This document shows positions 40,144 through 43,240 of a stretch of DNA of 64,000 nt, piece after piece. How positions within the stretch are numbered: position 1 is the stretch's first letter; each line of letters begins with the position of its first letter. Made by a program: the position numbers and the translations under genes. Under the pieces are notes generated by a model that was not told where the DNA came from, made no database searches, and saw only the letters and a program-made list of their open reading frames with translations. The DNA comes from Escherichia coli (lineage in GTDB: Bacteria > Pseudomonadota > Gammaproteobacteria > Enterobacterales > Enterobacteriaceae): the NCBI RefSeq assembly GCF_002854065.1, contig NZ_CP024147.1, one strand, 5' to 3'.

Positions 40144-40175
40144 AAACCTCCGCATTGCGGAGGTTTCGCCTTTTG
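40144..40175. terminator. Bidirectional terminator between convergent rmf and fabA
   Basis: CCTCCGC-att-GCGGAGG hairpin with T-runs on both strands. Confidence 0.6.
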
Positions 40176-40194
40176 ATACTCTGTCTGATTATAA

Positions 40195-40713
40195 TCAGAA
40201 GGCAGACGTATCCTGGAACAGACCGACTTTCAGGTCGCTGGCGGTATAGATCAGACGACCATCAACCAGCACTTCGCCATCTGCCAGACCCATAATCAGA
40301 CGACGATTAACAATGCGTTTAAAGTGAATACGGTAGGTCACTTTTTTCGCTGTCGGCAGTACCTGACCAGTGAATTTCACTTCGCCAACGCCCAGCGCGC
40401 GGCCTTTACCTTCGCCGCCCAGCCAGCCGAGGTAGAACCCTACCAGCTGCCACATTGCGTCCAGGCCCAGGCATCCCGGCATAACCGGATCGCCAATAAA
40501 GTGGCATCCGAAGAACCACAGATCCGGATTGATATCCAGTTCTGCTTCAACATACCCTTTGTCGAAGTTACCACCCGTTTCGGTCATTTTGACCACACGG
40601 TCCATCATCAGCATGTTCGGTGCTGGCAATTGCGGGCCTTTAGCGCCAAACAGTTCACCGCGACCAGAGGCAAGAAGGTCTTCTTTTGTATAGGATTCGC
40701 GTTTATCTACCAT
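40195..40713 (-). CDS. fabA: 3-hydroxydecanoyl-ACP dehydratase/isomerase FabA, 172 aa
   Basis: ATG at 40711-40713 gives [23 protein letters not shown]...; track ORF extends 66 codons upstream. Confidence 0.96.
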
Positions 40714-40751
40714 GTTCTCTGTAAGCCTTATTTTATTGAAGCACGCAGGAT

Positions 40752-40787
40752 AGCTAACACGTGTACGCTGAACAAGTCCGATCAGTT
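40752..40787 (-). promoter_or_regulatory. fabA promoter operators: FabR palindrome (40752-40769) and FadR site (40768-40787)
   Basis: 18-bp perfect palindrome AGCTAACACGTGTACGCT; adjacent reverse complement AACTGATCGGACTTGTTCAG resembles FadR consensus. Confidence 0.6.
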
Positions 40788-42542
40788 CGGAATAAACCAG
40801 TTCAGCCAACGTAATGGCCATGGAAAACGGTGACGTCCTTCCTGTTGCGATGCTTGCGCGATACGTTCCTGGATGGTTTGCATCAGCGTCGTTTGGCCTT
40901 CGCCATCCCACACCAGATTTAATAATAACGGCAGTGCGTCAGTCACATCGTCTACTGCCCAGATGGTGAATTTGCCTTCTTCTACCGCTTTCACCAGTTC
41001 ACTGTGAAGACTTAAATGGCGAACGTTAGCAGTGGGGATAATGACACCTTGTTTACCCGTTAACTCACGTTGCTGGCAAATAGCAAAGAAGCCTTCGATT
41101 TTCTCATTTAAACCACCGACCGGCTGGGCGCGACCGAACTGATCGACTGAACCTGTGATAGCGATACTCTGATTCACCGGCACATCAGCGAGGGCGCTTA
41201 TCAGGGCGCAGAGTTCAGCCATCGAGGCACTATCTCCATCAACTTCACTGTATGACTGCTCAAATGTCAGCGATGCTGAGAAGGGGATCTGTTGCTCAAG
41301 CTGTAGTTCCGACATCAGGAACGCCTGCATGATCATCATCCCTTTCGCATGGATATTGCCGCCAAGCTCCGCTTTGCGTTCGATGTCGGTGAATTCACCA
41401 TCGCCAATATGCACAACGCAGCTAATGCGAGAAGGTTCGCCAAAAGCGCGTGGATGACCCGGAAATTCAATGACCGAAAGGGCGTTAATTTGCCCGATGC
41501 GTTCGCCTTCGGTTTCAATCAGGATTTGCTCCTGAAGGATCTCATCCTGCATGCGTTCAGCGAGGAAACCTTCACGCCATTCACGCTGCTGTAGCATTAA
41601 GTTTAGCTGCTCGCCGGAGAAGGTGTCGCCATCACACAGGGAGGCGACTTCTTTACACTGGCGGAGGATCCACTGCGGGCTAAGCGGAAGTGTTTCTTGT
41701 TCACCGGTGTAGCGTACTGCTTCGCGGATAAGTACCGGCCAGGAATCCGCTCCCGGTGCAGGTAAGTGATTATGTCTGGCGGTAAATGTCACCCAGCGAC
41801 ACCACTGGCTTACTGACTCCGCATCGACAATCTGCAGAGTATCTTCAAATTCGCTATAAATAGCCTGCTCTGAAAGCTCTGGCTCCATCTCCTGGAAATC
41901 AGCCAATGATTCGCGTTCGCCTACCAGAATGACTTTCAGCTTCAATGGCATCGAAGGCACAGAGACGGGGAGAGGGCGCGACTCATCAAACGCAACCCAG
42001 TCAAAACGCTCGCGGTTAACGATATTTTTCAGCCGCATCCACAGCAGAGGTTGCGCCAGCAGTGTACGCAAAGAGATGATGAGAATACCGCCATTTGCCT
42101 GATGCACCAGACCAGGCTGCAGGGTAATGTCGCCATTAAACTGGCGCAGGCAGCCAAAGAGTTGCTCCGCTTCTACCCAGTCGGCAGCGACAACTTGCGT
42201 TAAAGTCGCAAAATTATCATCTGCATTCACTGCGTGACGTAAGCGGATGCTGTGGCCGGAAACCTCATAGTGACCGCCCACCAGTTGGCCTGCATCGCTT
42301 TGTAGCGTACGCGCGGCGTCGGCAATAAGATTCAGATACTCAGACTCTTCCGGGGCCTTAGCCAGCATAAAAGAGGAGGATGCTCGCGTATGCAGCAACT
42401 GCTCCAGCGCAAATTGCAGTCGCGGTTGAGTATCACTGAATAAAGGATCGTTTTCGTCAATCAAATGTGGCTGAGCAAATATTTCCTGATAGCTATCGGT
42501 ATCAGGAACCAGGTCACGCCATGCAAGTTTCGTAATGGTCAA
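40782..42542 (-). CDS. ycbZ: Lon-like protease YcbZ, 586 aa
   Basis: AAA+-like N-terminal region and Lon protease C-terminal domain (GDSAS catalytic serine). Confidence 0.9.
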
Positions 42543-42727
42543 AGTTGATGTTTTTTAGTCTGTTGTCAAAGCCGCGATTATACCGTAACCGGCACTACAG
42601 CACACGTAGAAAGCACCGACAATACTCCTGGCATGGGCGTTAAAGCTCACAGGATGGAGATTCTTTTCTTCACTGGCCTAAAAAACTGATATTCTGTAAA
42701 GAGTTACACGGTAACATTGAGATCGCT

Positions 42728-43180
42728 ATGAAATATCAACAACTTGAAAATCTTGAAAGCGGTTGGAAATGGAAGTATCTGGTGAAGAAGCATCGCGAAG
42801 GGGAGTTAATCACCCGTTACATAGAAGCCAGTGCCGCCCAGGAAGCCGTCGATGTGTTGCTCTCGCTGGAAAATGAACCCGTGCTGGTAAATGGCTGGAT
42901 TGACAAGCATATGAATCCGGAACTGGTCAATCGCATGAAGCAAACCATTCGGGCCAGACGGAAGCGCCATTTTAATGCGGAACACCAGCATACGCGCAAA
43001 AAATCGATCGATCTGGAATTTATTGTCTGGCAACGTCTGGCTGGTCTTGCGCAGCGTCGCGGTAAAACGCTTTCTGAAACGATTGTTCAGCTGATTGAAG
43101 ATGCGGAAAACAAAGAGAAATACGCGAATAAAATGTCTTCTTTGAAGCAGGATCTGCAGGCATTGCTGGGTAAGGAATAA
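42728..43180 (+). CDS. matP: Macrodomain Ter protein MatP (YcbG), 150 aa
   Basis: [35 protein letters not shown]...; ribbon-helix-helix and C-terminal coiled coil. Confidence 0.9.
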
Positions 43181-43211: not shown

Positions 43212-43240
43212 AAAAAAAACCCCGCAGCTGCGGGGTTTTT
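43212..43240. terminator. Bidirectional terminator between convergent matP and ompA
   Basis: A8-ACCCCGCAG/CTGCGGGGT-T5 perfect hairpin. Confidence 0.65.

Follow-up and report, generated by a model that had tools for sequence, protein, structure and literature searches.

The FadR and FabR boxes of the Escherichia coli fabA promoter and their position at the end of ycbZ

The junction between ycbZ and fabA on the Escherichia coli chromosome raises two questions: whether the 36 bp found there are the operators of fabA, and what it means that they begin inside the upstream gene. The DNA analysed was a stretch of 64 000 nucleotides (contig NZ_CP024147.1), referred to here over its full length as the window. 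The initial annotation, made from the letters of the window, had placed FadR and FabR operators of fabA at positions 40752-40787. The fabA promoter is a textbook case in which FadR activates fatty acid synthesis while repressing degradation, and FabR tunes the unsaturated-to-saturated ratio. The FadR activator and FabR repressor sites of the E. coli fabA promoter were reportedly described by Henry and Cronan in 1991/1992 and also by Zhang, Marrakchi and Rock in 2002 and by Feng and Cronan in 2009 and 2011. McCue et al. (2001) is said to be a further primary source for the fabA operators, and the E. coli fabB promoter was reportedly treated by Campbell and Cronan in 2001.

The window is E. coli chromosome with the gene order pqiABC-rmf-fabA-ycbZ-matP-ompA. 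A 2.6-kb query taken round the site was matched by 5425 of 5426 complete E. coli genomes, with rmf, fabA and ycbZ as the annotated genes. One RefSeq record, 100% identical to the window over this 2.6-kb query (to which alone the identity refers), gives fabA and ycbZ the same coordinates as in the window. In the same RefSeq genome the fimbrial usher gene elfC (23475-26059, plus strand) is annotated as a frameshifted pseudogene. An Rfam search of the whole window returned only the PyrD leader (28943-29016, plus strand, upstream of pyrD) and one tRNA (55883-55967, minus strand), with no family at the fabA/ycbZ junction. The two genes that flank the site are as follows.

40195..40713, minus strand: coding sequence of fabA, the regulated gene (RefSeq annotation).
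40782..42542, minus strand: coding sequence of ycbZ, a Lon-like AAA ATPase/protease homologue (RefSeq; Pfam AAA_32 and Lon_C).

On the plus strand, positions 40752-40787 read AGCTAACACGTGTACGCTGAACAAGTCCGATCAGTT. The minus strand from 40787 to 40752 is AACTGATCGGACTTGTT-C-AGCGTACACGTGTTAGCT, that is, a FadR box, a single base and a FabR box. The coordinates proposed for the operators hold. The elements of this tandem block are listed below with the evidence on which each assignment is based.

40787..40771, minus strand: FadR operator of fabA, 17 bp, AACTGATCGGACTTGTT (consensus match, published gel-shift probe, fabB, conservation).
40769..40752, minus strand: FabR operator of fabA, an imperfect 18-bp inverted repeat, AGCGTACACGTGTTAGCT (symmetry, homology, fabB, conservation).
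40784..40782, minus strand: stop codon TGA of ycbZ, bases 4-6 of the FadR box (sequence, RefSeq).

The ycbZ frame ends ...CCG AAC TGA, and the AAC and TGA triplets are bases 1-6 of the FadR box. The operators had been described as overlapping ycbZ; this is true of the FadR box, by these 6 nt, and untrue of the FabR box, which is wholly intergenic. Thus 6 of the 36 bp of the block belong to ycbZ and the remainder to the intergenic region, whose 68 bp separate the stop of ycbZ from the ATG of fabA. Sequence identity, coordinates, overlap, conservation and the absence of a terminator are observations of the present analysis.

The FadR box was compared with the published 17-bp consensus aaCTGGTCnGACC(T/A)Gtt (PMC9329746). 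It matches 14 of the 16 specified positions (10/12 in the core) and is the sole site in the window within three mismatches of the consensus. In 415 kb of flanking DNA from 80 genomes, core matches of at least 10/12 are rare, at 0.048 per kb. Base for base, the minus strand of the window from 40794 to 40741 is the published gel-shift probe fabA_ec-BD-F, on which its authors marked a putative FadR site and a predicted FabR palindrome (PMC4537474); the assignment of the two boxes to the FadR and FabR sites of fabA is upheld by this identity. Probes of the E. coli fabA promoter are bound by FadR (PMC4537474, PMC4259882), which is freed from DNA by long-chain acyl-CoA (PMC4259882). The 17-bp consensus is common to the fabA box and the operators of the fad regulon (fadBA, fadL, fadD, fadE and others), from whose consensus the fabA box departs at two core bases (CTGATC, GACTTG). 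Placement differs as well: in the fad genes the box overlaps the start site and blocks access of RNA polymerase (PMC9329746), whereas at fabA it would lie at about -40 and activate. The core CTGATCGGA(C/G)TTG is kept in Enterobacteriaceae, Yersiniaceae, Hafniaceae, Budviciaceae, Morganellaceae and Vibrio, and is degenerate in most Erwiniaceae and in Pectobacteriaceae.

The FabR box had been called a perfect 18-bp palindrome, but only 14 of its 18 positions are self-complementary; seven of the nine pairs are complementary and the mismatched pairs are 40755/40766 and 40756/40765. The literature terms the FabR motif a degenerate palindrome (PMC4804515). Perfect symmetry is no requirement for FabR operators, so the membership of the fabA box in this class stands. 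By position the box is the homologue of the 18-bp FabR palindrome that PMC4537474 marks for Shewanella. It fits the type AGCGTACA-nn-TGTnnGCT and was found in 71 species, nearly all of which keep the core ACAnnTGT, in agreement with the 'ACAnnTGTnnnnT' core of PMC4804515. The 2-bp centre is variable and the arms vary symmetrically, giving a perfect palindrome in several species (for example AGCGTACAGCTGTACGCT); a variable centre and symmetric arm changes are what a dimeric DNA-binding protein predicts. Repression of fabA and fabB by FabR has been published, together with binding of FabR to the Salmonella fabA promoter by ChIP-qPCR (PMC4804515). The only perfect 18-bp palindrome in the window is a different one, ACCCCGCAGCTGCGGGGT at 43219-43236, between the convergent genes matP and ompA, and is probably the stem of a bidirectional terminator.

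The symmetry of the FabR box was rejected as evidence because 18-mers with seven of nine complementary pairs occur at the chance rate (90 in the window, compared with about 76 expected from shuffles). This count is also what would be expected if the palindrome and the FadR-like box were chance likenesses devoid of a regulatory role, their conservation arising from the coding constraint on ycbZ, and the left edge of the FadR box is indeed coding sequence. Such a constraint, however, could act on only the 6 bp that lie within ycbZ. Conservation was assessed in a cross-species set of 80 species recovered with FabA, among which the Enterobacteriaceae-type loci are L002-L026 (n = 25). The alignment across enterobacteria that the initial annotation had suggested as a check agrees with it: 18 of these 25 loci carry the 36-bp block unchanged, and the other seven have one or two mismatches in it. 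Where the block is invariant, variation is seen on both sides of it, in the ycbZ codons immediately upstream and in the 5' UTR of fabA, and in the same 18 loci the identity of the YcbZ protein falls to about 70%. Within E. coli, 5384 of 5425 genomes carry a 66-bp stretch round the boxes with 100% identity; the surrounding 2.6 kb reaches at least 99% identity in only 3363.

The same block also lies upstream of the unlinked gene fabB, whose promoter, taken from one E. coli genome, is identical to that of fabA at 32 of 36 positions over both boxes. The tandem layout is the same (CTGATCGGACTTGTTC, one base, GCGTACAnGTGTnnGCTAT), and fabB carries GGCGTACAAGTGTACGCT directly after its FadR box, in the place of the fabA FabR box. 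Unlike fabA, fabB is divergent from its neighbour (mnmC, across a 158-bp intergenic region), and no upstream gene ends in its FadR box. The fabA site thus rises above chance through the probe identity, the fabB match and the cross-species conservation, not through its symmetry. FadR binding to the exact probe has been published (PMC4537474, PMC4259882), and with the published gel-shift and reporter data the chance-likeness reading is refuted; its probability is practically nil. A 9-nt block, CTTACAGAG, is also common to the fabA and fabB 5' UTRs just before the start (40714-40727, minus strand, for fabA; L082:772-790 for fabB); it may be a common element for translation initiation or regulation, or be due to chance.

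The regulatory reading of the two boxes leads to the anatomy of the promoter. In E. coli, FadR lies over the -40 region of fabA and FabR over the -10 region (PMC3462791). Two hexamers separated by a 17-bp spacer are proposed here.

40775..40770, minus strand: putative -35 hexamer of the FadR-dependent promoter of fabA, TTGTTC (spaced 17 bp from the -10 hexamer).
40752..40747, minus strand: putative -10 hexamer TATCCT (conservation; FabR over the -10 region, PMC3462791).

The putative -35 hexamer shares the last five bases of the FadR box, and its TTG is kept in 71 of 71 species. The FabR box ends on the first T of the putative -10 hexamer; at the hexamer, all 71 aligned species read TAnnnT, with variable inner bases. 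With these hexamers the centre of the FadR box would fall at about -40, and the FabR box would cover the spacer and reach one base into the -10 hexamer, which agrees with the published placement of the two proteins (PMC3462791). From the sequence we infer a fabA start site near 40740. A consensus sigma-70 scan of 40150-42800 gave no promoter at threshold, which is expected for a weak activator-dependent promoter and lends no independent support to the hexamers. The known E. coli fabA promoter is the same locus, with an equal probe sequence, FadR over -40 and FabR over the spacer and -10, and nothing differs. The 36 bp are very probably the core of the E. coli fabA promoter, with its FadR and FabR boxes, and the interpretation that the initial annotation gave to the two boxes is supported. 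Its observation, taken jointly over coordinates, overlap and palindrome, is partly confirmed.

For the mechanism, binding, the direction of regulation and co-transcription at fabA are taken from the literature (PMC4537474, PMC4804515, PMC4259882, PMC3462791, PMC9329746, PMC4161252). In these sources, FadR without its ligand activates fabB as well as fabA, and FabR, whose binding is strengthened by unsaturated acyl thioesters, represses both genes. FadR free of acyl-CoA, a GntR-family dimer, would bind the 17-bp box near -40, where it overlaps the weak -35 hexamer, and activate the promoter; long-chain acyl-CoA takes FadR off the DNA. FabR, a TetR-family repressor, would occupy the 18-bp repeat that fills the spacer and touches the -10 hexamer, thereby repressing transcription. 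Lying one base apart, the boxes would let both regulators act on one promoter, and the same tandem boxes at fabB would place both unsaturated fatty acid genes under common control.

Transcription of fabA also arrives from upstream. Conway et al. (2014) defined ycbZ-fabA as an operon by RNA-seq, with the two genes co-transcribed, and used it as their worked example; convergent rmf transcripts stop before or within it (PMC4161252). No terminator-like site was found on the minus strand in 40713-40800, and the RNA fold of the ycbZ-fabA junction is ordinary (z = -1.3). The expectation that read-through from ycbZ crosses the operators is therefore in line both with the RNA-seq operon and with the lack of a terminator-like site between the genes. 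With no terminator after ycbZ, transcripts from the ycbZ promoters and those begun at the CpxR-dependent start within ycbZ would run across the operators into fabA.

Being transcribed in the read-through RNA, the repeat might act there instead of as an operator, as a hairpin that ends or attenuates read-through from ycbZ or gives stability to the 3' end of ycbZ, and the symmetric arm changes across species fit a hairpin as well as a protein dimer. Yet the repeat is followed by no T-run, and a palindrome that has no spacer and two mismatched pairs is a weak hairpin. By RNA-seq the transcripts run on into fabA (PMC4161252), and fabB has the same repeat with no co-oriented gene upstream. With no terminator-like site on the minus strand at the junction and an ordinary fold, a hairpin or terminator function was rejected and is left with a very small probability; the repeat is read as the FabR operator.

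The control region extends further into ycbZ than the FadR box. Three fabA start sites have been described, S1 being activated by FadR, S2 repressed by FabR and S3 induced by acid (Xu et al., 2020; PMC7083825). Counted from the ATG of fabA, the CpxR box spans -272 to -258 and its DNase I footprint -287 to -255 (PMC7083825). Both S3 and this box fall within ycbZ.

40916, minus strand: approximate S3 start of fabA, in ycbZ (203 nt upstream of the ATG according to PMC7083825, converted to the window).
40985..40971, minus strand: CpxR box GTAGAagaagGCAAA, in the ycbZ coding sequence (exact single match to the published sequence).

The claim that the fabA control region lies partly inside ycbZ is thus sustained by the CpxR box and the third start (PMC7083825) in addition to the FadR box, and the published picture goes beyond what had been noted initially. 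A TATTAT hexamer was found at 40927..40922 on the minus strand, 6-11 nt upstream of S3. Near the CpxR box, a terminator-like hairpin with a T-rich run lies on the plus strand at 40946-40968, antisense in ycbZ. Internal and secondary operon promoters are common in compact bacterial genomes. The fabA promoter shares its architecture with others that lie in the 3' end of a co-oriented gene before them, read-through adding to their transcription, and no difference from them was found.

The position of the ycbZ stop within the FadR box was followed across species. A ycbZ homologue lies directly upstream of fabA, in the same orientation, in Enterobacterales, Pasteurellaceae and Vibrio (L002-L081); the linkage is old and tight. 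The stop falls on box bases 4-6 in 57 of the 77 loci scored (48 TGA, 9 TAA), among them most Enterobacteriaceae, Yersiniaceae, Hafniaceae and Budviciaceae and also Vibrio penaeicida. Most Erwiniaceae have a TAA stop at the same place and a degenerate FadR box, and two Haemophilus species have a TGA inside a CTGATCCGAC box. This recurrence, including the Vibrio and Haemophilus cases, could be taken to mean that the placement is itself selected, for example by coupling termination or read-through to occupancy of the operator. It is, however, mostly explained by shared ancestry; ycbZ ends 12-22 nt upstream in Morganellaceae and Pectobacteriaceae, and ribosomes act on RNA rather than on a DNA operator. 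Because fabB has the CTGATC arm with no gene ending in it, the A that forms the TGA is a feature of the box pair and not an adaptation to ycbZ. On the strength of that fabB arm, selected coupling was judged unlikely, with a slight probability at most. With a gap of only 68 bp, the final codon of ycbZ and the TGA also serve as the left arm of the FadR box, and the overlap reads as a by-product of this very short gap that has been widely inherited.

In many species other than E. coli, a further palindrome, CTGGTTnAACCAG (TGGTnnnACCA), lies at about -87 from the fabA ATG within the last ycbZ codons, N-W-F-N-Q/H, its centre 15 bp upstream of that of the canonical FadR box. The 15-bp shift places this candidate second box on a different face of the helix from the canonical one. 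The loci concerned are L029, L031, L032, L034 and L048 in Pectobacteriaceae, L040, L042 and L046 in Yersinia, and L033, L039, L054 and L056 in Erwiniaceae. Compared with the FadR core, CTGGTTnAACCAG matches at 9-10 of 12 positions in Yersinia, Serratia, Pantoea, Erwinia, Pectobacterium and Vibrio. E. coli retains the left half only.

40800..40788, minus strand: degenerate remnant of the second FadR-like palindrome, CTGGTTTATTCCG (7/12 core match).

In the 21 species that encode this peptide, AAC is the codon of the two outer Asn residues in 21/21 and 20/21, as compared with 43% AAC in the rest of the same genes, and Gln is CAG in 10/10, counts in which the species are not independent and to which codon bias may contribute. 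The central Phe codon, which corresponds to the unspecified centre of the palindrome, is free (12 TTC, 9 TTT). Five Pectobacteriaceae have an earlier in-frame ycbZ stop (TGG to TAA or TGA), and ACTGGTTnnnCCAGA is still present after it. Families whose canonical box has decayed (most Erwiniaceae, Pectobacteriaceae) have an intact upstream box, and the E. coli clade has an intact canonical box beside a degenerate upstream one. Taken together, the AAC bias, the persistence after the early stop and the complementary retention suggest that the DNA, and not the protein, is under constraint. It is possible, though this is put forward tentatively and from sequence comparison, that a second FadR-type palindrome outside the E. 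coli clade represents DNA-constrained operator duplication or turnover within coding sequence. The second palindrome concerns other species and lies outside the known control region of E. coli.

The FadR and FabR operators of fabA are real and conserved, and they were already known; all of the biology has been published, and nothing contradicts the identification of the site as the FadR/FabR control region of fabA. The finding therefore matters little beyond confirming the annotation. Should the second FadR-like box hold, it would add a modest case of an operator turning over inside coding sequence. For E. coli itself, the overlap and the read-through matter to work on ycbZ: a clean deletion of the gene or a C-terminal tag on its product would remove or shift the FadR box, the CpxR box and the S3 promoter and thereby alter the expression of fabA.
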